This document shows, piece after piece, positions 1 to 17,400 of a stretch of DNA of 27,279 bases. The notes below the pieces were generated by a model, which saw only the letters and a program-made list of their open reading frames with translations, searched no databases and was not told the DNA's origin. The DNA comes from a virus (Duplodnaviria > Heunggongvirae > Uroviricota > Caudoviricetes): IMG/VR virus record IMGVR_UViG_2541047774_000009; one strand, written 5' to 3'. Each line of letters starts with the position of its first letter. Positions within the stretch are counted from its first letter, which is position 1. The position numbers and the translations under genes are program-made.

Positions 1-3053
<3,053 letters not shown>

Positions 3054-3079
<26 letters not shown>

Positions 3080-3599
3080 TCAGCAACCCCGGTATCAGTT
3101 CATCCAGCGCGGCTGCTTTGTTCATGGCTTTGATGATATCCCGTTTCAGGAAATCAACATGTCGGTTTTCCAGTTCCGGAAAACGCCGCTGCACCGACAG
3201 GGGGATCCCGTCGAGAATACTGGCAATTTCACCTGCGATCCGCGACAACACGAAAGTACAGAATGCGGTTTCCACCACTTCAGCGGAGTCTCTGGCATTC
3301 TTCAGTTCCTGTGCGTCGGCCTGCGCACGCGTAAGTCGATGGCGTTCGTACTCAATAGTCCCTGGCTGGAGATCTGCCTCGCTGGCCTGCCGCAGTTCTT
3401 CAACCTCCCGGCGCAGCTTTTCGTTCTCAATTTCAGCATCCCTTTCGGCATACCATTTTATGACGGCGGCAGAGTCATAAAGCACCTCATTACCCTTGCC
3501 ACCGCCTCGCAGAACGGGCATTCCCTGTTCCTGCCAGTTCTGAATGGTACGGATACTCGCACCGAAAATGTCAGCCAGCTGCTTTTTGTTGACTTCCAT
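3054..3599 (-). CDS. Nu1: Terminase small subunit Nu1 (181 aa)
   Basis: Translation MEVNKKQLADIFGASIRTIQNWQEQGMPVLRGGGKGNEVLYDSAAVIKWYAERDAEIENEKLRREVEEL matches lambda Nu1; located immediately downstream of cos. Confidence 0.95.
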
Positions 3600-3776
3600 T
3601 GTTCATTCCACGGACAAAAACAGAGAAAGGAAACGACAGAGGCCAAAAAGCTCGCTTTCAGCACCTGTCGTTTCCTTTCTTTTCAGGGGGTATTTTAAAT
3701 AAAAACATTAAGTTACGACGAAGAAGAACGGAAACACCTTAAACCGGAAAATTTTCATAAATAGCGAAAACCCGCG

Positions 3777-3788
3777 AGGTCGCCGCCC
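3777..3788 (-). other. cosN cohesive-end sequence (12 nt); cosB lies between here and Nu1 start (3600-3776)
   Basis: Reverse complement of 3777-3788 is GGGCGGCGACCT, the lambda 5' cohesive end; reverse complement of 3600-3790 reproduces the lambda left-end sequence (GGGCGGCGACCTCGCGGGTTTTCGCTATTTATGAAAATTTTCCGG...). Confidence 0.85.
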
Positions 3789-3937
3789 CGTAGCCTGTTG
3801 GATCGCCGGAAAGGACCCGAAAAACGAGAATAATTATCACTTACAGCAAGAATCGAATCTGATCTATTATGGTGCTTGCTATTATGTGCCGGCACAAGTG
3901 CGTCGTTTACCGTCATTTCACACAGAGGCATCATCAA

Positions 3938-4189
3938 ATGAAAATCAGAAATATTCTCGCTATCTCCCTTGCAACATCATCCTTCAGTTGCCTGGCATTT
4001 AAATCCTCGCCCAATGTGCTACCAGGACCAACGAATCAACTAACTGCGGTAGAAAGTAAAATTATCGGACATTTTTATGCCCCACACAGTGCATTACCCG
4101 GAACAACCATCACAGGGACATGTGACGCCTCCCCCGTCCCGGGATGCACCTGTCCGTTTTGTACTATGCTGCGTAGCCAAAACCGATAA
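3938..4189 (+). CDS. Hypothetical small secreted protein (83 aa) with N-terminal signal peptide and Cys-rich C-terminus
   Basis: Internal ATG of track ORF 3869..4189; product MKIRNILAISLATSSFSCLAFK... has a hydrophobic signal-like N-terminus and CDASPVPGCTCPFC near the C-terminus; no family recognised. Confidence 0.3.
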   Translation: MKIRNILAISLATSSFSCLAFKSSPNVLPGPTNQLTAVESKIIGHFYAPHSALPGTTITGTCDASPVPGCTCPFCTMLRSQNR

Positions 4190-4552
4190 CATCCGCATTT
4201 ACCTGGTATTCCATGATGAGTTCACGCAGCGACTGATAGAGGAAGGAAAGATGGTTAGCAAAAGCAAGGCGCATTGCCGCCGCATGCTGCAGGCATTGCA
4301 ACAGACGAGAGCAGGTATTTTTGACCAGTTGGAAAACTGCCAGCATACTTTGCCCGAGTATATCGCCATCTCATCGGAAACCAGTGCAACTCTTATTCAT
4401 CGGGTTCCACTAGAGAAAAAGAAGAAATGAACAGTGAGGCGTTGTGTGGCATACAACGCCTTCTTCCATCATTCCTCGTCAGCCATGACAAAAATATAAC
4501 CGCTGGCTCTTTCATTTTTCTCCTGCTTCCAGCCCCTCTCTACCTGGAAGCA

Positions 4553-4879
4553 TCAGGGACGTGACGGCGTAAAGATAAATTGTCTCTTCACTCCCTGACA
4601 GGGACGATTCTTTTCAAATCGCCATTTCGCCATGGCCTTCACCACTTCATCACGAAACAAATTATGAGGCTCTGAGCGGAGAAAAACGATCCGTGTCACA
4701 GTCCCATCAGCACCAATATCGAACTTAACCTCAACCAGCCCCTTGATATAATTTGCTGCAGCATATTCCGGATATCGTGGATACACCGTCACTAATTGCC
4801 GGGGCTCATCAGCTTTTTGCTGCGAGCATCCCACTGCTAGGACAGATAACAGAAAAAGTAGTAAAAGGCGTCTTTTCAT
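4553..4879 (-). CDS. Lipoprotein with TonB C-terminal-like domain (108 aa)
   Basis: Start at internal ATG 4877-4879 with AGGA upstream; N-terminus MKRRLLLLFLLSVLAVGCSQQ (signal peptide plus lipobox LAVGC); C-terminal segment YIKGLVEVKFDIGADGTVTRIVFLRSEPHNLFRDEVVKAMAKWRFE resembles TonB C-terminal fold. Confidence 0.5.
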   Translation of the reverse strand: MKRRLLLLFLLSVLAVGCSQQKADEPRQLVTVYPRYPEYAAANYIKGLVEVKFDIGADGTVTRIVFLRSEPHNLFRDEVVKAMAKWRFEKNRPCQGVKRQFIFTPSRP

Positions 4880-5359
4880 TTTTATTCCTACGGGTCTTAT
4901 TCTGACAATATATCCTGTGTTCCAGACTGCCACATCACCACATCCTGTGCCATTATCTGACTCACATTACATACATCGCATCGGGATACAGTAGTAGCAC
5001 TTTCTGTAATACAGCTTCCGGTTTCTTCCACCATCGCACCGGGATAAATCCGCGAATCATTAACGCGGTAAAAACCCGGTGTGCATCGTTTTTAATTATT
5101 CCCGCACACTCACGCAGAAGGAATTCCCCGTCGGGCTACGGTCATGGTTAATGCGGGAATACGGCGACGATACAGCGCAGCTAAAAGGGTAATGGACGGA
5201 TAGACCGGTTTATTTCATTCTACAGGATTCTGAGTGTCCCCAACTCCCTCCAATCGTCTGAGCTCACCTGTGTAGTTTTAATTTTCATCAATCCATTTAA
5301 CTATCGTTTAATTGTTGTCACATAGGATTCTGCCGTTTTTAACAATGCAGGATAATAAG

Positions 5360-5653
5360 ATGAAAAAAATGTTGTTTTCTGCCGCTCTGGCAATGCTTAT
5401 TACAGGATGTGCTCAACAGACGTTTACTGTTGGAAACAAACCGACAGCAGTAACACCAAAGGAAACCATCACCCATCATTTCTTCGTTTCGGGAATTGGG
5501 CAGAAGAAAACTGTCGATGCAGCAAAAATTTGTGGTGGTGCAGAAAATGTGGTTAAAACAGAAACCCAGCAAACATTCGTAAATGGATTGCTCGGTTTCA
5601 TCACTTTTGGCATTTATACTCCGCTGGAAGCGCGGGTGTATTGCTCAAAATAA
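5360..5653 (+). CDS. bor: Bor lipoprotein (serum-resistance outer-membrane lipoprotein, 97 aa)
   Basis: MKKMLFSAALAMLITGCAQQTFTVGNKPTAVTPKETITHHFFVSGIGQKKTVDAAKICGGAENVVKTETQQTFVNGLLGFITFGIYTPLEARVYCSK closely matches lambda Bor; oriented opposite to lysis genes as in lambda. Confidence 0.9.
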   Translation: MKKMLFSAALAMLITGCAQQTFTVGNKPTAVTPKETITHHFFVSGIGQKKTVDAAKICGGAENVVKTETQQTFVNGLLGFITFGIYTPLEARVYCSK

Positions 5654-5684
5654 TTGCATGAGTTGCCCATCGATATGAGCAACT

Positions 5685-6146
5685 CTATCTGCACTGCTCA
5701 TTAATATACTTCTGGGTTCCTTCCAGTTGTTTTTGCATAGTGATCAGCCTCTCTCTGAGGGTGAAATAATCCCGTTCAGCGGTGTCTGCCAGTCGGGGGG
5801 AGGCTGCATTATCCACGCCGGAGGCGGTGGTGGCTTCACGCACTGACTGACAGACTGCTTTGATGTGCAACCGACGACGACCAGCGGCAACATCATCACG
5901 CAGAGCATCATTTTCAGCTTTCGCATCAGCTAACTCCTTCGTGTATTTTGCATCGAGCGCAGCAACATCACGCTGACGCATCTGCATGTCAGTAATTGCC
6001 GCGTTCGCCAGCTTCAGTTCTCTGGCATTTTTGTCGCGCAGGGCTTTGTAGGCGATTGCGTTATCACGGTAATGATTAACAGCCCATGACAGGCAGACGA
6101 TGATGCAGATAACCAGAGCATAAATAATCGCGGCGACTCTGCTCAC
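5685..6146 (-). CDS. Rz: Rz i-spanin (153 aa, GTG start overlapping R stop)
   Basis: Translation from GTG at 6144-6146: (M)[59 protein letters not shown]... matches lambda Rz. Confidence 0.9.
5744..5926 (-). CDS. Rz1: Rz1 o-spanin lipoprotein (60 aa), embedded in Rz in +1 frame
   Basis: [60 protein letters not shown], lipobox VVGC and Pro-rich tract, near-identical to lambda Rz1; entirely inside Rz. Confidence 0.9.
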
Positions 6147-6676
6147 TGATCTATCCCCCAACAGGCTAATGCGCTTTCCTGGTCACGACGAATAACCTGT
6201 CCATAGCAGTTATTTGAACGTATGCGGCAATCGCGCCCACCATCTTTTATCCACCAGCGAATCGCCTCGCATGCACCTTTACGATCACCGGCATTCAGCC
6301 GCTTATAAAACGTCGACGGGAAACACTTACCGGGGCCAATGTTATAGGGACAAAATGACGCGATACCCGCTTTCTGTGGTTCGGTCAGTGGCACTTTAAT
6401 ATTGCGCTCCACCCATGCCAGCGCCTTATCCCGTTCAATGGCGTTAACCTGGTCGCATTTTTCCTTCGACAGTTTCATACCGGGAACAACGGGTTTTCCA
6501 TCCACCACCGTGGCACCCCGACAGATGGTCCAGATGCCGGAACCATCGCGGTATGCCGTTGTGTGGTTACCTTCTTTTTCATCCAGAAACTGGTCGAGAA
6601 TATCAGGCGCAGGCGCACCGACGGCAATCAGTGCCAGAACGGCAGCCGACAGGCCGTATCTGATTTTTGCGTTCAT
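6143..6676 (-). CDS. R: SAR endolysin (GH24 T4-lysozyme-like, 177 aa)
   Basis: N-terminal signal-arrest-release segment [16 protein letters not shown] followed by catalytic E-x8-D-x5-T triad ([16 protein letters not shown]); matches P21/933W-type R rather than lambda transglycosylase. Confidence 0.9.
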
Positions 6677-6781
6677 GGATATTTATCAGGATTTATCGGT
6701 TTCTGAACCCTGGATATGTTTATCTGTCCCGGCCTGTTGAATCAGGCAAGGAATAGTTAAATACAATAGAGAGGATTGTTT

Positions 6782-7054
6782 ATGGACAATAGCACCATTT
6801 CTCTACAGGAGTTGCTCGACTGCATTTCCAGGCTTCGGGATGATGTAAATGCCCTTACTGTCGCATTTTCATATCTGGCATTCTCAATTCCCAAGGAACA
6901 AATGCAACCAACACTGGCATCGCTCCAGCTTGAATCAATCAATCCCAAATGGTCCCAGCAACAACAAAATTCTTTCAAGTGGCTGGCGGTATTACTGGAG
7001 GAAAAATATGCTGGTGAAATTACCATTTCGGCGGAGTCTTCAGTGAACCAGTAA
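6782..7054 (+). CDS. Hypothetical small protein (90 aa), antisense to the lysis operon
   Basis: ATG at 6782 preceded by GAGAGGA (6767-6773); occupies a 343-nt gap between the DUF1327-like gene and R; 3' end overlaps DUF1327-like gene on the opposite strand by 35 nt; no family recognised. Confidence 0.35.
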   Translation: MDNSTISLQELLDCISRLRDDVNALTVAFSYLAFSIPKEQMQPTLASLQLESINPKWSQQQQNSFKWLAVLLEEKYAGEITISAESSVNQ

Positions 7055-7364
7055 TTCTTCCCGGCAGTTTTCCTTTGTAGGTTATCCACACACTCTGCGC
7101 CTCTAAAATTATGGGGCGCTTTTCCGGCGACTGCTCATCCCCTCCACATAACCCGGCAGCAACATCCAGGAAGACCTGTCTGATGCTCCTTCTGGCTGCT
7201 GCCTCATAAAACTCCAGCGCGGCACCTTCAACACGGTCCAGCGAGATGTCCAGGTCAAAAATTTCACCGTCAAAGCGTTCTTTGTCCTGTAATGCTAAAG
7301 TTACCGTAACTTTATTCTCAAAATTGCGGATCCCTTTCACAATCATTTCATAGTTTTGGACCAT
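7020..7364 (-). CDS. DUF1327-family phage protein (YdfR-like, 114 aa)
   Basis: MVQNYEMIVKGIRNFENKVTVTLALQDKERFDGEIFDL...; AGGAG RBS; sits between holin and endolysin as ydfR does in Qin-type prophages; start 4 nt after holin stop. Confidence 0.6.
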   Translation of the reverse strand: MVQNYEMIVKGIRNFENKVTVTLALQDKERFDGEIFDLDISLDRVEGAALEFYEAAARRSIRQVFLDVAAGLCGGDEQSPEKRPIILEAQSVWITYKGKLPGRITGSLKTPPKW

Positions 7365-7368
7365 TATA

Positions 7369-7584
7369 TTACTCTCCTCTCGCAGCCTTTCTTCTGTCTT
7401 CTCTGATTTTGAAGTACAGATTCGTCAGATAAGTCAGAAAGCCCAGAACCAGACTTCCCAGTACACCAATCGCAGCCCACTGAGACGGACTAACCTGATC
7501 AAGCCATTGTAAAAACCAGTAGCCAGCACTGCCTGCGGAGGTGCCGTAGGCAATGCCTGTTGATATTTTTTCCATCTGATACAT
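7369..7584 (-). CDS. S: Class II holin/pinholin, S21/EssD-like (71 aa) with dual-start motif
   Basis: [71 protein letters not shown] matches S21/EssD family; two in-frame ATGs (7584 and 7575) 3 codons apart; paired with SAR endolysin. Confidence 0.85.
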
Positions 7585-7693
7585 ATCCCGCCCCAACAGA
7601 CCTGTGCTACCGGAAAGAAAAAAGGCCATCAGCAAAACTCTGATGGCCTGAATCACCTTTACCAGTCATGTATGAAAAAATACGCACAACCAA

Positions 7694-7823
7694 TTGACAA
7701 TAATTATCATTTTCATTAAAAATACCGCGTAACATTCTTATTTCATGAAGAACCATACCCGCCAGCGACCTGAGTAGCAAAAGCTGTTCATCCCCCATAT
7801 TTTTGCTGGCGGGTTCTTTTTTC
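7694..7823 (+). ncRNA. Candidate small RNA transcription unit antisense to the late-operon leader
   Basis: Consensus -35 TTGACA at 7694-7699, A/T-rich -10 region 7717-7723, then 10-bp perfect GC-rich stem (ACCCGCCAGC 7757-7766 / GCTGGCGGGT 7805-7814) followed by TCTTTTTT; no ORF over 10 codons. Confidence 0.3.
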
Positions 7824-8049
7824 TACTGCCCTCCTCCCCAGGAAAAGCATTTCATTCTTTTCTCATTAATCGTTACTGGAGAGAAGGCGGGAAAAAGCCA
7901 GCTCTTTGGCCCTAAATAACAGCATGGCTTCAGTCCATACAGAATCTGATTTTCCAGCTCACATAATAACCAGATGATGCAGTTGCAAAATCTGGCAACA
8001 TCGGATTATTATGCGCCTGTGAAAATTTCTTCACGTTTTATTCCTTGCC

Positions 8050-8077
8050 GCCCGTGCCTCCCAGCGCGGGCTTTTTT
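8050..8077 (+). terminator. Plus-strand intrinsic terminator-like hairpin with T6 run
   Basis: GCCCGTG...CGCGGGC stem (one G-U pair) followed by TTTTTT at 8072-8077. Confidence 0.4.
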
Positions 8078-8081
8078 ATCC

Positions 8082-8107
8082 AAAAAATACCCCTCCGGAG
8101 AGGGGTA
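8082..8107 (-). terminator. Minus-strand intrinsic terminator (candidate tR'-like)
   Basis: Perfect 8-bp stem TACCCCTC/GAGGGGTA (8088-8095/8100-8107) with 4-nt loop, followed on the minus strand by a U6 run (plus-strand AAAAAA 8082-8087). Confidence 0.5.
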
Positions 8108-8396
8108 TCATACAAGGGGATGACCATGATGCATGGTGCCGGGTGCCTCCCGGTGAGTCCGGCATCAGCATACGAACCCGCGATTATCCCAGAACTGACT
8201 GCTGATTCGCCCCGCCGCTTAGGGGGATTCACCATGCGTTTTTTTATTTACAAACTCTTCGCCAGACAAACAACCATTAACTGGCTGAATTGTGAGGTAT
8301 TTCAATTTTTAGAAAACTGACCAACCTCCGCTTATACGCCGGGCATGGAGCGGATACAAAAAAGCCCCGCAAAAGCAGATCAGAAGGATTCGTTGT

Positions 8397-8436
8397 AAAA
8401 AAAAAGCTGTCAGATTATCGCGCTAATCTGACAGCT
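8397..8436 (-). terminator. Minus-strand intrinsic terminator downstream of methyltransferase gene
   Basis: Perfect 12-13 bp stem GCTGTCAGATTA/TAATCTGACAGC (8406-8417/8424-8435), 6-nt loop, followed on the minus strand by a U9 run (plus A-run 8397-8405). Confidence 0.6.
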
Positions 8437-8677
8437 ACAGCAGGTATCCAAAAACATGGGTGGAAACAATAAGTGAGTTAAGAAGACACGGTGTCGGATT
8501 TTTACCGATGAGCCGTTGGCGTGGTCAACCGTGACTCGCTTGTATCAACGATGAATTAATGAAGCCAATCCTTTGCAGGCTATGTACAACCCACCACATC
8601 AGCCCTGCTGCATTGCAGGATACACTGTATCTGTAATCATTATACGGCACAGACATCCCACCAATAATTGAATTAAT

Positions 8678-9769
8678 TCACAAAATTGTATTTGCTGATA
8701 ACATACTGATTTCCTGGATGGTCTGATTAAACCGCTCTGTCTCAAGCTCAACACCTAACGCCCGACGCCCCAGCGCCATTGCTGCTTTTATTGTGGAACC
8801 GGATCCCATAAAGAAATCAGCAACCAGATCGCCGGGTCGACTACTGGCATTGATTATTTGCCTGAGCATATCCGCCGGTTTCTCACACGGATGTTTACCC
8901 GGGTAGAACTGAACGGGTTTATGCATCCAGACATCGGTATAAGGCACGGAGACTGATACGGAGAAATAGCGCCGGAGAGATTTAAACTCATCCAGCAATT
9001 CAGAATATTTGCGATTCAGTGAATCATAAGATGCCACCAACTGGTGGTGTGGTTGTTCCAGTTGTTGTTCCTGAAACTTCTCTGCCGCTATACGGGAAAA
9101 CAGTGCCTGTAACTTCCGGTAGTCAGCCTCATTCGGCAACTGCCACTGACTGGCACCAAACCAGTGGGAAACCATATTTTTCTTACCTGTGGCTTCGGCA
9201 ATTTGTTTTGCCGTTATACCCAGTTCGGCACGAGCATCCCTGAAATACGATATCAGCGGTGCCATTATGTGCTGTTTGAGTTCCCTTTCTTTTGCCGCAT
9301 AGCCGTCACTTTTGCCGCGATATGGCCCCTGGTAATGTTCAGCAAACAGAACGCGCTCTGTGGCAGGAAAATATGCGCGCAGACTTTCTTTATTACACCC
9401 ATTCCAACGTCCGGACGGCTTCGCCCAGATGATATGGTTAAGCACGTTGAAACGTTCACGCATCATGATCTCAATATCAGATGCCAGGCGATGCCCACAG
9501 AACAGGTAAAGGCTTCCGGCTGGTTTCAGTACCCGCCAGAACTGGGCCAGACAGTGGTCCAGCCACTTCAGGTAATCTTCGTCCCCTTTCCACTGATTGT
9601 CCCAGCCGTTGGGCTTCACTTTGAAGTACGGCGGATCGGTAACAATCAGATCAATGGAGTTATCAGGCAGGGACTGAATAAAATGCAGGCAATCAGCGTT
9701 GATTAAATCAACACTGTTTATTTTTACAGTATTTTCATGGATCAGTAAGCGTAACTCTGGTAGGCTCAC
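8678..9769 (-). CDS. Orphan DNA methyltransferase, beta-class N6-adenine/N4-cytosine type (363 aa)
   Basis: Motif IV DPPY near N-terminus (LIVTDPPYF) and AdoMet motif I near C-terminus (DFFMGSGST): circularly permuted beta-class order; GTG start at 9769; no adjacent endonuclease gene. Confidence 0.8.
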   Translation of the reverse strand: MSLPELRLLIHENTVKINSVDLINADCLHFIQSLPDNSIDLIVTDPPYFKVKPNGWDNQWKGDEDYLKWLDHCLAQFWRVLKPAGSLYLFCGHRLASDIEIMMRERFNVLNHIIWAKPSGRWNGCNKESLRAYFPATERVLFAEHYQGPYRGKSDGYAAKERELKQHIMAPLISYFRDARAELGITAKQIAEATGKKNMVSHWFGASQWQLPNEADYRKLQALFSRIAAEKFQEQQLEQPHHQLVASYDSLNRKYSELLDEFKSLRRYFSVSVSVPYTDVWMHKPVQFYPGKHPCEKPADMLRQIINASSRPGDLVADFFMGSGSTIKAAMALGRRALGVELETERFNQTIQEISMLSANTIL

Positions 9770-9888
9770 TCTGCTTTTGCGCTAAAGCAGTGGGCCGTGG
9801 TTCGCTTGTGACAAGTAAGCATGAGCGAATGGCTGGCAGGTGCTACCAACACCCACCAGCCGCCCATTTTCACAGCAGGAAACCGCCA

Positions 9889-10092
9889 TTACTGGCAGCG
9901 TCTGAATTTATTCCCGTACCCGCCGTTATCCTTCGCCAGACCCGCCAGAACTAACTGAGTCAGTATTAACTGGCACCGGGCTTCGCTTACTCCGGTAGTT
10001 CTCGTCATCATGCGTGGCGTTACCCACTTGTCAGCAGGTAAGAAATGAAGGACTGCGGCGGCGGTTTCTGTCATATCTTGCTGTTTTAGCAT
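9889..10092 (-). CDS. Hypothetical small winged-helix-like protein (67 aa from internal ATG; ORF extends to 10116)
   Basis: ORF co-oriented with and 119 nt upstream of the methyltransferase; helix-turn-helix-like segment TPRMMTRTTGVSEARCQLILTQLVLAGL; internal ATG has GAAGGG upstream; no family recognised. Confidence 0.3.
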   Translation of the reverse strand: MLKQQDMTETAAAVLHFLPADKWVTPRMMTRTTGVSEARCQLILTQLVLAGLAKDNGGYGNKFRRCQ

Positions 10093-10411
10093 GTCTTTTT
10101 CCCTTCTGGTTAACATGACATACCAATAACTCTTGTCTAAAAAGCCAGCAAGATAAAAAGTCAGTATTCACGACCACCAGCGTGTTTACTGTGCTGCACC
10201 AAGTTTACAGGTACAAAAAAACCGCTCAGCGGCGGGTTTAAGTTGTGTGGCGAAGTAACCACTCTTAACACAGTAATCTAGAAAATGCGGACCGCGTTAG
10301 TGATTTTTATCTGTTTTTCCATTATTTTTTTGCCACACAGCTTAAAACGAAAAATAAAGCAGGCGTTGCCAAACCTCACGGTGACAGTTGGCTTAGAATG
10401 AGGACATATTT

Positions 10412-11431
10412 TTGGATAAGTTTGATGAGATTCATGTAGACATTGAATCTGAGCAGCAAGCCTTCGATTTGCTTGAAAGCTATCTTGATGGTTATGGTTT
10501 ACCTGACAGTTTAAGTTTCAACGGATGGCCAAACCTTACCATCAGATTAACCGGTGAAAAATTCAACAGATCGCTAACACCTTCAGTTATGAAGGGATTT
10601 GTTGAAATGCAAGCTCAAATCAACAAATCATATGCCCTTGCCAAGTACGGTGTCCCTGACGTCCGCAAACTGACCAAAGAAGAACTTGATGCCCTAGAAA
10701 TAGAAGTTACGGTAGAACAGGGTTCTTCAATAGTAGAAATCAACATTGATGGCTTTTTAACCAAACTCACACAGGAACTTGTTGGTAAAATGAACGCAAC
10801 TGAGATCATGTTTACTGTTCTCGGCGCAGCAGTCATCTGGGGCGGAGTAACAGTATTTAAACGGTTCTTGGACAACCGTAAAGATATTCGCCTTGCAGAA
10901 ATTGCTAAGGATGGAGAGAAAGAACATCTCCGGACTATGCAGATCATGAGCGAGCAAGAAACTAAACGCCTGCGGGTTATTTCAGAAATGATTGCGGAAA
11001 AACCACTTCTCGATAACATGGACCGTATGTCGTATGACGCTAAAACCCAAATGGTCAAATCCTTTGTGCGTTCAGATAACGCTCAAATTGATGGCGTTAC
11101 TATTGATTCTGAAATGGCGAAAGAGTTGGTTACGAATGCTCGTAGACGTTCATCAGAAATGAGGATTGATGGTATTTACCGAATTGAAGAAGTCAATAAT
11201 ACTGACCCAGAGAGTTTCAAAGTTAAGGTCCGACGCGTAGATACCGACCAACGTCTAACCTGCGTAGTTCAGGATGTTTTCCTTGATGAATCCGGAAACA
11301 AAGAAGCATTGCAGCGAGCTGAGTGGGAAAGAAAGCCTGTACATTTGAGCATTAACGCAAAACACGTCGATGGTGACATTAAGTCAGCAGTAATTCTCTA
11401 TGTTCGAGATGTGGAACAAAAGCCCGAGTAA
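10412..11431 (+). CDS. Hypothetical membrane-anchored protein (339 aa, single central TM helix), lower-GC moron convergent with late genes
   Basis: TTG start with GAGGA 7 nt upstream; one hydrophobic helix (IMFTVLGAAVIWGGVTVF, residues about 133-150) separating two soluble domains; stop codon sits in the loop of a hairpin shared with the convergent Q gene; no catalytic motif recognised. Confidence 0.6.
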   Translation: MDKFDEIHVDIESEQQAFDLLESYLDGYGLPDSLSFNGWPNLTIRLTGEKFNRSLTPSVMKGFVEMQAQINKSYALAKYGVPDVRKLTKEELDALEIEVTVEQGSSIVEINIDGFLTKLTQELVGKMNATEIMFTVLGAAVIWGGVTVFKRFLDNRKDIRLAEIAKDGEKEHLRTMQIMSEQETKRLRVISEMIAEKPLLDNMDRMSYDAKTQMVKSFVRSDNAQIDGVTIDSEMAKELVTNARRRSSEMRIDGIYRIEEVNNTDPESFKVKVRRVDTDQRLTCVVQDVFLDESGNKEALQRAEWERKPVHLSINAKHVDGDIKSAVILYVRDVEQKPE

Positions 11432-11445: not shown

Positions 11446-11823
11446 TCAATCTTTAATTTCGGGGTCCATCTCTAGACTAATTTCCAGCATCGATAGGCAG
11501 CCATCAATAAACCCCTCAGCCATCTGTATCTCAATGCGTATTAGTTTCTCATCCTTTTTACGAGCCTTGGCGAGCTTTCTTTTAGAGATACCGTATAGGT
11601 AATGGGCAACAAGAAGCGAATGTTCGTCCGGCCTTTTTTGCCTTAGACGAGCAAGACAACCTTCAATAATTAATGCATCACTATCTGAACATGCCTGACG
11701 TGTTTTGCTTGTATAGGGAAGAAGCCCTTTAAACCCAGCAGCTATAGGAGAATAGTCTACTCCTGAACTATCACTCGCCGCCCATGCTCCCCAACGATCC
11801 AGAACCATTTGAATATCACGCAT
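11446..11823 (-). CDS. Late-gene antiterminator Q, phage-82/QuuD type (125 aa)
   Basis: MRDIQMVLDRWGAWAA...IAAGFKGL...C.D.DA.II.GC.ARL...LL..YY...KAEG.I.G.L..L.I.LEMD pattern matching QuuD/Q82 family; GGAGA RBS before ATG 11823. Confidence 0.8.
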   Translation of the reverse strand: MRDIQMVLDRWGAWAASDSSGVDYSPIAAGFKGLLPYTSKTRQACSDSDALIIEGCLARLRQKRPDEHSLLVAHYLYGISKRKLAKARKKDEKLIRIEIQMAEGFIDGCLSMLEISLEMDPEIKD

Positions 11824-11840
11824 CAACTTTCTCCACAAAA

Positions 11841-14056: not shown

Positions 14057-14379
14057 ACTTTCAGGTCCCTCTCATGTAACCAGTGGGTTGCACGCAGCCT
14101 TGCGTTTTCCTCACCGGCAAGCAGTGCGCGGATAATCCCGACCGCCTCGCTGTCGTCGTCCTTCACCGCGGTATGAAGCGTTATCCCCCGGGCCACGCCA
14201 CGCTTTATCGTGATGACGCCTTTTTTCTCCAGTGCGCGAAGATGCTCCACCGCTGCATTCACCGAACGGTATCCCAGCATGGTTGCCACCTCCTGATTGG
14301 TTGGCGGGAAGCCACGTTCTTTCTGATAAGAAATCAGCATATCCAGCACCTGCTGCTGGCATTGAGTTAACGTCGTCAT
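14053..14379 (-). CDS. LexA DNA-binding-domain-like protein (108 aa)
   Basis: LTQCQQQVLDMLISYQKERGFPPTNQEVATMLGYRSVNAAVEHLRALEKKGVI resembles the LexA N-terminal winged HTH; no peptidase domain. Confidence 0.55.
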   Translation of the reverse strand: MTTLTQCQQQVLDMLISYQKERGFPPTNQEVATMLGYRSVNAAVEHLRALEKKGVITIKRGVARGITLHTAVKDDDSEAVGIIRALLAGEENARLRATHWLHERDLKV

Positions 14380-15029
14380 GCCGCCATCTCCCTGACCAGT
14401 TTTTCTGCCTGCTGGCGAACCTGCGCCAGAAACGCCTCACCACATGCCTCAAGTTCATCGCGCCCGATGTAGCTGATTGCCGGGCCCTTCCAGGTCTTGT
14501 CGAAAACAGCAATAGCACCAGCGAAGAAAGCGCCTGTCGGCACCTGCTTCTCGTCCTTCGGGATAAACCAGGCAGGCAGTTCAAAACCAATACGCCCGCG
14601 AATAAAAGCAATATGATCTGCATCTTCCGGCCACCACACTTCGCTGGTGGCAGCTTTGATCAGGAAAACATAGCGTCCGCCCTTATCACGCATGGCACTG
14701 GCATGCTTCATGATGTAACGCATGCCGGTGATGTATTGCCCTTCATGCTGACTGGCGCGGCTGTACGGGGGATTACCAAAGGCAGCACCTTTAAGCTCCG
14801 CAAGACGTTCAGACCAGTCATGCGCCAGCGCGTTGTCTTCCGCAGTGTAATAAGCGGCACATTTGGCGTTATCACCATCAGTGAACAGATCCAGAACAAA
14901 CGGGCCAAACAGGGTGTTAATTCCCCAGAAAATGTTATCCGGCGTGCGCCACTGATCGCCCACTTCCTTCAGTTCATGGGCTGGTTTGTTCCGCAGCTCC
15001 ACCAGCGCCTGCCAATATTTATTACTCAT
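14376..15029 (-). CDS. Phage Dam-like DNA N6-adenine methyltransferase (217 aa from ATG 15029)
   Basis: NPPY catalytic motif (FGNPPYSRA); ATG at 15027-15029 overlaps upstream stop (TAATG); no endonuclease partner. Confidence 0.7.
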   Translation of the reverse strand: MSNKYWQALVELRNKPAHELKEVGDQWRTPDNIFWGINTLFGPFVLDLFTDGDNAKCAAYYTAEDNALAHDWSERLAELKGAAFGNPPYSRASQHEGQYITGMRYIMKHASAMRDKGGRYVFLIKAATSEVWWPEDADHIAFIRGRIGFELPAWFIPKDEKQVPTGAFFAGAIAVFDKTWKGPAISYIGRDELEACGEAFLAQVRQQAEKLVREMAA

Positions 15030-16571: not shown

Positions 16572-17400
16572 GACGATGCCCTCCGCTGATATTCAGGAGA
16601 CGGTGAATATGAAAATTAGCCTTATCCGCCAGACGAATACGTTCAGCTTGCAAGTTAAGAAGGGTTTCTACCAGAACCTGATGTGCCTGCGGATCCGAAA
16701 GAGTTACCTTGCGCAGAGCACGTAGTGCAGTTGTTACATAACTGAGTTTATGTAAGTCTTCATCATTCAGACGAGTGAGGGCTGGGACAGTAGCCATGAT
16801 GGCAGCCTCCGTATGCAATGGATAACTTCCACCACCGGAAACGCCAATTTCGCTGGTGGTGAACTGAGCAGGGTTGGCGTAACCGGCGCATACGGAAACC
16901 GGCGCACCTTTCGGTGCCCCCACCCAGCCCACCATAATTTGGGTATAGCTGAGTTGTAGCAACAAAAAAGACGCTAACGCGCCAATTGTCGCCGTATGCA
17001 ATTCCAGGACGCCAATCCCGGCACCCGCTTTATAAGGTGCCTGAACAGTGTAACGTCCCGGAATGGCAGAATCAATGTGCTGGTGGTCCTTCACACTCAA
17101 CAAAATCACGCCTGAATTTCCACAAAGGGCTAAAGCACTCATGCGGGTAGTCTTTGCGAAGATAGATAACGCGCTGTGTTTCTGGCTCCCAACGAATAAC
17201 ATGAACATAAAGTCCTCTTCCGTCACGAAACCAGCGGTTAAGTTCCTGCACAACTCGCCCCCCACAGTCAGGTAAAGTTCTCTGTGGTTACTTACAGCCA
17301 GGAGATTTGGTAATCTGCATTCATGCCGTAACAACAGGTGTTCAGCGACGCTGACCACCAGCTGTTGCGACAAACGGTTATTTGCCGTTAAACTGTTCAT
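16564..17400 (-). CDS. Hypothetical protein (278 aa)
   Basis: Long ORF tightly packed in early-right operon with ATGA overlap to upstream gene; no family recognised. Confidence 0.5.
   Translation of the reverse strand: MNSLTANNRLSQQLVVSVAEHLLLRHECRLPNLLAVSNHRELYLTVGGELCRNLTAGFVTEEDFMFMLFVGSQKHSALSIFAKTTRMSALALCGNSGVILLSVKDHQHIDSAIPGRYTVQAPYKAGAGIGVLELHTATIGALASFLLLQLSYTQIMVGWVGAPKGAPVSVCAGYANPAQFTTSEIGVSGGGSYPLHTEAAIMATVPALTRLNDEDLHKLSYVTTALRALRKVTLSDPQAHQVLVETLLNLQAERIRLADKANFHIHRLLNISGGHRHA

Follow-up and report, generated by a model that had tools for sequence, protein, structure and literature searches.

A conserved structured RNA leader and an optional, predicted winged-helix gene ahead of a frameshifted M.EcoGII-family methylase gene in a lambdoid prophage

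Introduction

Prophages of Escherichia coli O104:H4 C227-11 encode two DNA methylases, M.EcoGI and M.EcoGII, that are silent in lysogens and act without a recognition motif (PMC5778455). M.EcoGII methylates adenine in any context; lysogens do not express it, and its expression is deleterious (PMC5778455); like its reconstructed ancestors, it is largely non-sequence-specific (PMC5778455, PMC11551740). A review describes the enzyme as silent and toxic and pairs it with Mom of phage Mu (PMC12707154). Here, a related gene is examined together with the sequences that precede it on the minus strand of a 27,279-nucleotide (nt) viral record (Caudoviricetes; IMG/VR IMGVR_UViG_2541047774_000009), the whole of which is referred to below as the window. 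The methylase gene is ordinary, belonging to a family that is common in prophages and already characterised. Of more interest are a conserved RNA leader and an optional winged-helix companion, encoded by a small open reading frame (ORF), neither of which is described in the resources searched. The family is sold as a reagent, M.EcoGII is widely used for chromatin and RNA mapping, and its native control elements may help to express or tame it. The covarying leader, held at a fixed distance from the start codon, also offers a testable handle on how prophages silence a toxic enzyme of this type.

The same arrangement occurs in described phages. The locus is 97-98% identical in DNA sequence to phages cdtI (orf56/orf55), mEp460 and Ayreon, where the pair is called "DNA methylase plus hypothetical protein", and 89% identical to Stx2c-converting phages, so that small ORF, spacer and methylase together range from 89 to 98% identity. 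The Q-holin position is also shared; in Ayreon and cdtI, the methylase pair is annotated between the antiterminator gene Q and the holin gene. In contrast to the window, these phages keep an intact ATG-AAA-AAT start (350 amino acids, aa) and have other genes between Q and the module.

The com-mom operon of phage Mu resembles the module by analogy only. Both combine a small upstream ORF and a structured leader with a DNA-modifying enzyme, which in Mu is toxic, late-expressed and silent in lysogens and in the module would be expected to be so too. Com activates mom translation by binding the leader. However, there is no homology between the two systems: Com is a zinc finger and Mom is not an AdoMet (S-adenosylmethionine) methylase, whereas the small ORF of the window has a predicted winged-helix fold, stops 150 nt short of the methylase and has been dispensed with in many lineages.

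Family membership of the methylase

8678-9769, minus strand: mechanically called ORF of 363 aa with a GTG start, spanning the complete methylase body
8678-9738, minus strand: canonical M.EcoGII-family methylase gene, with the conserved ATG at 9738-9736 and the body from codon 3 at 9733-8678; the frame is broken by a 1-nt deletion

The ORF matches Pfam PF01555 (N6_N4_Mtase; E=5e-42, 144.8 bits against a cut-off of 26.7 bits) and the PADLOC MTase_II model (5e-151). In the canonical protein, DPPY (motif IV, residue 35) precedes FMGSG (motif I, residue 310) and the recognition domain sits between them, which is the motif order of the beta class. The original prediction for this DNA, made from its letters without database searches, had proposed a beta-class enzyme with DPPY ahead of the AdoMet motif, and this assignment holds. 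The N- and C-terminal halves each separately match the solved beta-class enzymes M.RsrI, MboIIA and CcrM.

Compared with M.EcoGII, the protein is 81% identical over 346 aa, with 283 of 348 residues identical in the full-length comparison. The recognition domain, a helix-turn-helix, is collinear and shares 60 of 78 residues (77%), and the charged interdomain linker shares 16 of 22. These identities are lower bounds, as the reference sequence was machine-read from Suppl. Table S1 of PMC11551740. Apart from a differing C-terminal tail, the alignment contains two one-residue gaps only. Identity to the reconstructed ancestor Anc291 is ~90%. Together, the comparisons place the gene at 8678-9738 among the beta-class N6-adenine methylases of the M.EcoGI/M.EcoGII family. 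Since M.EcoGII and the ancestors that bracket the window protein are largely non-specific, the window enzyme would be expected to methylate adenines without sequence preference as well. The likeness extends to the surroundings: in E. albertii (locus L019), an enzyme 94.8% identical to M.EcoGII is preceded by the same small ORF and leader.

In addition to the 1-nt deletion, the window copy differs from M.EcoGII in its C-terminal tail, which follows a mosaic junction. Similarity to cdtI, mEp460 and Ayreon stops at ~8721, in the 3' end of the methylase gene, and the final 14 codons, together with the 240 nt that lead to the terminator, would therefore have another origin.

A restriction endonuclease is neither annotated nor recognisable in the vicinity of the methylase, and the late region carries no nuclease annotation. 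The gene thus keeps the orphan status first ascribed to it, unlike the methylases of type II restriction-modification systems, which have an adjacent cognate endonuclease.

A structured RNA leader

9739-9888, minus strand: conserved structured RNA leader, from the stop codon of the small ORF to the methylase ATG (covariance-model match at 9733-9894, 181 bits)
9807-9874, minus strand: leader domain H1, a long interrupted hairpin with stems P1 (UGUGA/UCACA), P2 (AUGGGC/GCUCAU), P3 (GGCUGG/CCAGCC) and the apical stem P4
9763-9796, minus strand: leader domain H2, with basal stem GGCCCAC/GUGAGCC and an apical hairpin
9771-9790, minus strand: apical stem of H2, the 7-base-pair hairpin CUGCUUU-AGCGCA-AAAGCAG, with covariation at alignment columns 136/147
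9739-9762, minus strand: leader tail up to the ATG, with conserved UAYCA and CUGAUC

The spacer between small ORF and methylase measures 148-158 nt across loci, and its mean column identity of 76% exceeds that of the flanking protein genes at the nucleotide level. RNAalifold, applied to a plain MAFFT alignment of 22 sequences, returned two hairpins at 9874-9807 and 9796-9763. In this structure-agnostic alignment, 97.6% of cells are paired, as against 28-41% with slid partners, and five pairs have changed on both sides. Among 50 distinct leader sequences, 93.5% of cells are paired and 21 of 29 pairs have changed on both sides; this level of pairing was reached by none of 500 shuffles, and slid controls gave 25-44%. 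The 50-sequence alignment was fitted to the covariance model and hence leans towards it. When 42 diverse leaders were aligned with MAFFT, again without regard to structure, only the invariant UGGGC/GCCCA helix was recovered and the variable stems were misaligned. The covariation evidence accordingly rests on the 22-sequence MAFFT alignment and the model-fitted one.

Individual stems illustrate the compensatory changes. In Providencia and Proteus, P3 has changed from GGCUGG/CCAGCC to GACUGU/ACAGUC, and columns 136/147 of the H2 apical stem hold UA in 36 sequences, GC in 11, CG in two and AU in one. Many pairs are G-U, which assigns the structure to the mRNA strand. The hairpin at 9771-9790, which had been singled out as abutting the methylase start, is real with its 7 base pairs; it is not an isolated element, being the apical stem of H2 within a structure of ~150 nt.

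In 52 of 74 sources, the covariance model places the leader immediately ahead of the methylase ATG, and these sources include clades without the small ORF. When IMG/VR was scanned with a DNA pattern that is independent of any protein, 111 leader instances with enough downstream sequence were obtained; in 106 of them, the methylase comes next, at a constant offset of 135-139 nt. The five exceptions are four leaders cut by a recombination junction and one chance match. From these alignments and scans, the leader emerges as structured and nearly exclusive to M.EcoGII-family methylase genes.

Searches for a described counterpart were negative. Rfam 15 gave no match to the spacer at 9739-9888, whether its gathering thresholds or a limit of E<=10 was applied, and the Rfam families AgvB, AsxR, Esr41 and STnc100 did not match it. 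A full-text search of the literature library with the leader sequence found no paper.

Some distant M.EcoGII-family methylases in IMG/VR lack the leader (loci L160, L161, L171, L175 and L177). These five share another motif, TGATGCCTTGAGTACCTGAGACCCA ... GGAGAGGAAGCA, ~60-150 nt upstream of the methylase.

The small winged-helix ORF

9889-10092, minus strand: 67-aa ORF whose product is predicted to fold as a winged helix (phrog_331), start ATG at 10092
10113-10155, minus strand: conserved non-coding sequence immediately ahead of the small ORF, CTTGCTG ... CAGAGTTAT.TGT.TGTCA

All homologues of the small ORF start with MLKQQDMTE, which corresponds to the ATG at 10092, and a Shine-Dalgarno-like GAAGGGA precedes this codon. 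The small same-strand ORF noticed earlier upstream of the methylase is real, while its start belongs at 10092 (67 aa) and not at 10116 (75 aa). Its product matches phrog_331, a family without an assigned function, and relatives at ~50% identity carry the NCBI name "TrmB family transcriptional regulator"; Pfam, NCBIfam and PADLOC gave no match.

An AlphaFold2 model built from an alignment of 20 sequences has a predicted local distance difference test score (pLDDT) of 87.1 and an H-b-H-H-b-b order of elements: helix 4-17, a single strand or bridge residue at 24, helices 26-33 and 37-49, and strands 53-55 and 63-65. Foldseek matched the model to TrmBL2, IclR N-terminal domains, Z-alpha and the domain of SelB that binds SECIS RNA. 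Template-modelling scores (TM-scores) to Z-alpha (0.81) and IclR N-terminal domains are 0.75-0.82, and the Foldseek E-values are weak (>=3e-3), as expected at 67 residues. With its H1-b1-H2-H3-b2-b3 topology, the small protein is predicted to be a stand-alone winged-helix domain, in agreement with the winged-helix likeness first seen in its sequence.

A genome search seeded with the small protein alone found 24 loci in diverse Enterobacterales, among them Mangrovibacter, Plesiomonas, Providencia, Proteus, Kluyvera, Salmonella, Citrobacter and Klebsiella. An M.EcoGII-family methylase lies ~150 nt downstream in 22 of them, and the other two are a contig end and a partial match. The ORF is likewise linked to the methylase in 103 of 113 phage instances. 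A profile hidden Markov model of the protein detected it in 82 of 149 phage loci with more distant methylase relatives and not in the other 67. By these counts, the linkage between small ORF and methylase is real yet not obligatory, and the winged-helix protein is an optional accessory.

Such a protein could be a C-protein-like transcriptional controller that binds DNA upstream of its own gene and times or represses the methylase; this is the most serious of the alternatives, though we consider it somewhat unlikely. As with the C proteins of type II restriction-modification systems, a small ORF with a DNA-binding fold stands upstream of a modification gene in the same orientation. The best fold matches include the DNA-binding regulators TrmBL2 and IclR (N-terminal domain), the putative recognition helix RCQLILTQLV is nearly invariant among homologues, a conserved non-coding block lies just upstream of the start, and the linkage in genomes and phages is tight. 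However, the locus contains no endonuclease whose timing would need control, and the winged-helix fold differs from the Xre-type helix-turn-helix of C proteins. No C-box was found, nor is there a clear palindromic operator or sigma-70 promoter upstream; the block at 10113-10155 matches the sigma-70 consensus poorly and was not called by a promoter scan. Several of the 67 phage loci without the ORF retain the leader, and winged-helix domains also bind RNA hairpins (SelB with SECIS) and Z-DNA. The resemblance to controller proteins raised by the original prediction therefore does not extend to membership of that family.

Start codon and the frameshifted allele

9732-9735, minus strand: A-run right after the ATG and site of the frameshift, A4 here and A5 in relatives
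9724-9738, minus strand: four-codon frame opened by the canonical ATG (ATG AAA ATA CTG TAA, as read from the sequence)

The family ATG at 9738-9736 lies 31 nt downstream of the GTG at 9769. It is kept in 22 of 22 homologues from other genera (57-92% protein identity), where it is followed by AAA, GAA, GCT, CTT or AAT and then by AAY (TCG in one), ACT and GTA. An alignment with phages Ayreon and cdtI shows that one A is missing from the window after the ATG of the ATG-AAA-AAY-ACT-GTA start, which changes ATGAAAAATACT to ATGAAAATACT. The deletion falls at codon 2-3 and puts the canonical ATG out of frame, and the 363-aa GTG-start ORF is a consequence of this; the GTG start originally predicted is an artefact of the frameshift. 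The window allele consequently lacks the intact start of the family (ATG-AAA/CTT-AAY-ACT-GTA), which bears on its expression and not on its family assignment.

Upstream of the deletion, the methylase frame is open only as far as a TAG 15 nt before the GTG at 9769, and this GTG is the sole in-frame ATG, GTG or TTG ahead of the catalytic DPPY. No Shine-Dalgarno sequence was seen ahead of it, and the codon (9769-9767) falls in the 3' strand of the conserved H2 basal stem. RefSeq places the start of the window allele at an ATC (9742) and names the product WP_077249175.1, "DNA-methyltransferase", without a pseudogene flag.

An exact 50-mer across A4 occurs in 24 of 1047 matching E. coli records, and the carriers are mostly chicken or duck isolates and avian-pathogenic E. 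coli (APEC) strains. The 95-99% identity band holds 977 of the 1047 records; the listed 98% matches span 51 nt, which fits A5. A4 is thus a real, lineage-restricted allele. Because the ATG is out of frame and the remaining GTG lacks a Shine-Dalgarno sequence and lies inside a conserved stem, methylase protein from this allele is probably weak or absent. An allele that RefSeq treats as intact is in fact frameshifted close to its start, mostly in poultry-associated E. coli, and this matters wherever methylomes or restriction evasion are predicted from sequence.

The opposite reading, in which an intact 363-aa methylase with a short N-terminal extension and normal activity is made from GTG 9769 (or ATC 9742), is unlikely. 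The frame is indeed open from the GTG, RefSeq calls WP_077249175.1 intact, and the allele is carried by 24 complete genomes in two prophage backbones. These points are outweighed by the downstream ATG, conserved in all 22 homologues as well as in Ayreon and cdtI, by the position of the GTG, without a Shine-Dalgarno sequence, in the 3' strand of a covarying stem, and by the confinement of A4 to 24 of 1047 records. Rescue of the frame by slippage was considered by reasoning only and set aside: a +1 shift of tRNA-Lys on AAAA gives the wrong frame, and A4 is too short for transcriptional slippage.

Role of the RNA leader

Because the leader keeps a fixed distance to the methylase start codon, and its tail offers no Shine-Dalgarno sequence at the usual distance from the ATG, its most likely role is a cis effect on the methylase mRNA, on either translation or stability. 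Tentatively, and at somewhat less than even likelihood, it may represent an undescribed class of cis-regulatory RNA that is dedicated to M.EcoGII-family genes of Enterobacterales prophages. Such an element would act after transcription as a safeguard against a toxic, non-specific methylase of DNA and RNA and would respond to the winged-helix protein, to the methylase itself, or to S-adenosylmethionine or S-adenosylhomocysteine (SAM/SAH). The nearly invariant UGGGC and GCCCA, each with two possible partners, would be the switching elements.

The alternative helix UGGGC/GCCCA could form in 99.6% of cells and never varies, and other alternative helices are paired in 73-77%. Constrained folding of the 50 leaders favoured the consensus fold by a median of -2.8 kcal/mol, and pairing of the ATG region was equal in both states.

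That the spacer is instead a separate small RNA gene, a short coding gene starting at its invariant AUG, or a DNA-level site seems quite improbable. The invariant AUG in AAUGGGCG opens a frame of 33 codons in the window, and prophage late regions are rich in small RNAs. Yet this frame varies from 4 to 45 codons across leaders and is conserved only as MGGWWVL, on which ground a coding gene was rejected. The structure is not followed by a terminator, lies at a constant distance from the methylase ATG and is almost never seen without the methylase; the strand-specific G-U pairs speak against a site in duplex DNA.

Position in the late region and proposed function

11446-11838, minus strand: antiterminator Q (Pfam PF06530, E=2e-52)
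10412-11431, plus strand: gene for a 339-aa protein (phrog_6191), between Q and the conserved block
10237-10305, minus strand: conserved block with the palindrome GCGGTCCGC and TGTTAAGAGTGG, a candidate late-promoter and Q-loading region
10214-10235, minus strand: terminator-like hairpin followed by T7, a tR' candidate; hairpin and T-run occupy the same place in relatives, with different stem sequences
8405-8436, minus strand: strong intrinsic-terminator-like hairpin (13-base-pair stem and T9), 240 nt past the methylase stop codon
8078-8266, minus strand: small RNA STnc100 (RF02076, 114.5 bits), related to PasD, between the methylase module and the holin gene
7369-7584, minus strand: class II holin (Pfam PF04971; RefSeq annotation), start of the lysis cassette

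Read along the minus strand, the elements follow one another as Q, conserved block, terminator-like site (10233-10221), small ORF, leader, methylase, strong terminator, STnc100, holin, lysozyme and Rz. The strong terminator (8436-8405), which had been taken for the end of the methylase gene, lies well beyond the stop codon. The module's location is the moron site beyond PR', which in Stx phages is occupied by stx (PMC4104026). In a Salmonella relative (locus L016), the same conserved block comes right after the Q gene, and several distant phages have a clear promoter and terminator directly ahead of the methylase leader. Late, Q-dependent transcription of the module would fit this context.

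Flanked by the Q and late-promoter region and by the lysis genes, the module is rather probably a late-operon "moron" of a lambdoid prophage, consisting of a winged-helix gene, a leader of ~150 nt and an M.EcoGI/M.EcoGII-family methylase gene. Silence of the methylase in the lysogen, late anti-restriction methylation and a defective A4 allele are parts of this reading. In the lysogen, the methylase gene would be kept off, as M.EcoGII is. After induction, the module would be transcribed together with the late genes, and the enzyme, if it behaves as M.EcoGII does, would methylate adenines of the replicating phage DNA without sequence preference. Packaged genomes would then resist many restriction systems in the next host, a role already proposed for M.EcoGII. 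The leader would limit or gate translation of the dangerous enzyme, or serve as a protein-binding platform, and the winged-helix protein may act on the leader or on nearby DNA. By analogy with M.EcoGII, the enzyme most likely serves to methylate the phage DNA once the prophage is induced, so that it escapes restriction; the anti-restriction role raised as a possibility by the original prediction gains support and is sharpened by the family assignment at 81% identity.

Several observations weigh against this account. Its enzymatic part is carried over from a relative with 81% identity, and the same protein cluster holds a site-specific member, M.PflMI. The late promoter was not located, since a consensus scan of the minus strand at 10240-10411 gave no sigma-70-like match, and between Q and the conserved block lies the oppositely oriented 339-aa gene. 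Many loci have the leader but not the winged-helix ORF, and joint action of the two is thus not a necessity; a two-state model of the leader (UGGGC/GCCCA pairing, and GAGCC with the tail before the ATG) was neither supported nor refuted by the folding comparison. The A4 allele persists in 24 genomes and two prophage backbones and hence may keep some function, and initiation at the GTG, or re-initiation after the four-codon frame, may occur.

That the enzyme is an orphan methylase with a defined target sequence and serves epigenetic or regulatory purposes in the lysogen, like Dam or CcrM, is highly improbable: NCBI names relatives "site-specific DNA-methyltransferase", and both the solved beta-class relatives CcrM and M.RsrI and the cluster member M.PflMI are site-specific, but the window protein has 81% full-length identity to M.EcoGII and ~90% to Anc291, both non-specific, and contains the charged linker that M.PflMI lacks, M.EcoGI and M.EcoGII are unexpressed in the lysogen, and the gene sits downstream of a terminator in a late operon with its start frameshifted in the window allele. 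If the module is a late moron as proposed, a lysogen without a new methylated motif, which had been offered as grounds for refutation, is the expected outcome, because M.EcoGI and M.EcoGII are silent and motif-less and the allele is frameshifted; such a result would not count against the methylase.

In its early region, at 14376-15029 on the minus strand, the same prophage also encodes a Dam-family methylase (PF05869, E=1e-45) that is unrelated to the M.EcoGII-like one. Phage Dam-family methylases resemble the M.EcoGII-family enzyme in being phage-encoded, orphan N6-adenine methylases and differ from it in family, motif order and early-region location. Dam-family methylases are specific for GATC.

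Distribution and neighbouring elements

The module matches 1462 of 5426 complete E. coli genomes. An E. coli GF47 record that matches nearly the whole window was used for annotation. Window positions 3053-11431 are shared at 99.9% with E. coli ACN002 (locus L003), whose prophage lies at the DLP12/ompT locus; collinearity with ACN002 over the whole window was considered and rejected, as only this part matches. The shared 8.4-kb block holds a packaging gene, iss/bor, the lysis genes, the methylase module and the 339-aa gene. Judged from these alignments, the block, including the A4 allele, sits in two prophage backbones and has moved between them.

The 339-aa protein was considered as a cognate endonuclease and rejected, because sequence searches (Pfam, PHROGs, PADLOC, NCBIfam and PDB) and structure prediction (AlphaFold2, Foldseek) gave no nuclease signature. 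Pfam, NCBIfam and PADLOC contain no family that matches it. In its model (pLDDT 83), a long middle part is helical, and the beta domain at the C-terminus gives weak, OB-fold-like matches. Homologues occur in Enterobacterales, Pseudomonas, Acinetobacter and Burkholderiales, and the gene is possibly a lysogen-expressed moron.

The palindrome GCGGTCCGC lies at 10289-10297 on the minus strand, ahead of the tR'-like terminator, and its sequence covaries among relatives (GCGTACGC, TCGTTACGA). A protein, Q for example, could bind it, or it may form a hairpin in the RNA. In three distant loci (L145, L148 and L151), a clear promoter, a terminator and a GC-rich leader stand ahead of the methylase.

STnc100 is bounded by convergent terminator-like hairpins at 8050-8071 (plus strand) and 8109-8086 (minus strand). 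Its position is that of the "convergent sRNA" (small RNA) described downstream of PR' morons in prophages of enterohaemorrhagic E. coli (EHEC). Two further Rfam matches are adjacent to each other in the early region, a C4 antisense RNA at 16852-16939 (minus strand, 80.7 bits) and the Hfq-binding RNA isrK at 16964-17040 (minus strand, 61.2 bits). Beside the lysis cassette, at 5360-5653 on the plus strand, lies an iss / Lambda_Bor lipoprotein gene (serum survival), in keeping with the avian-pathogenic E. coli strains to which the closest genomes belong.

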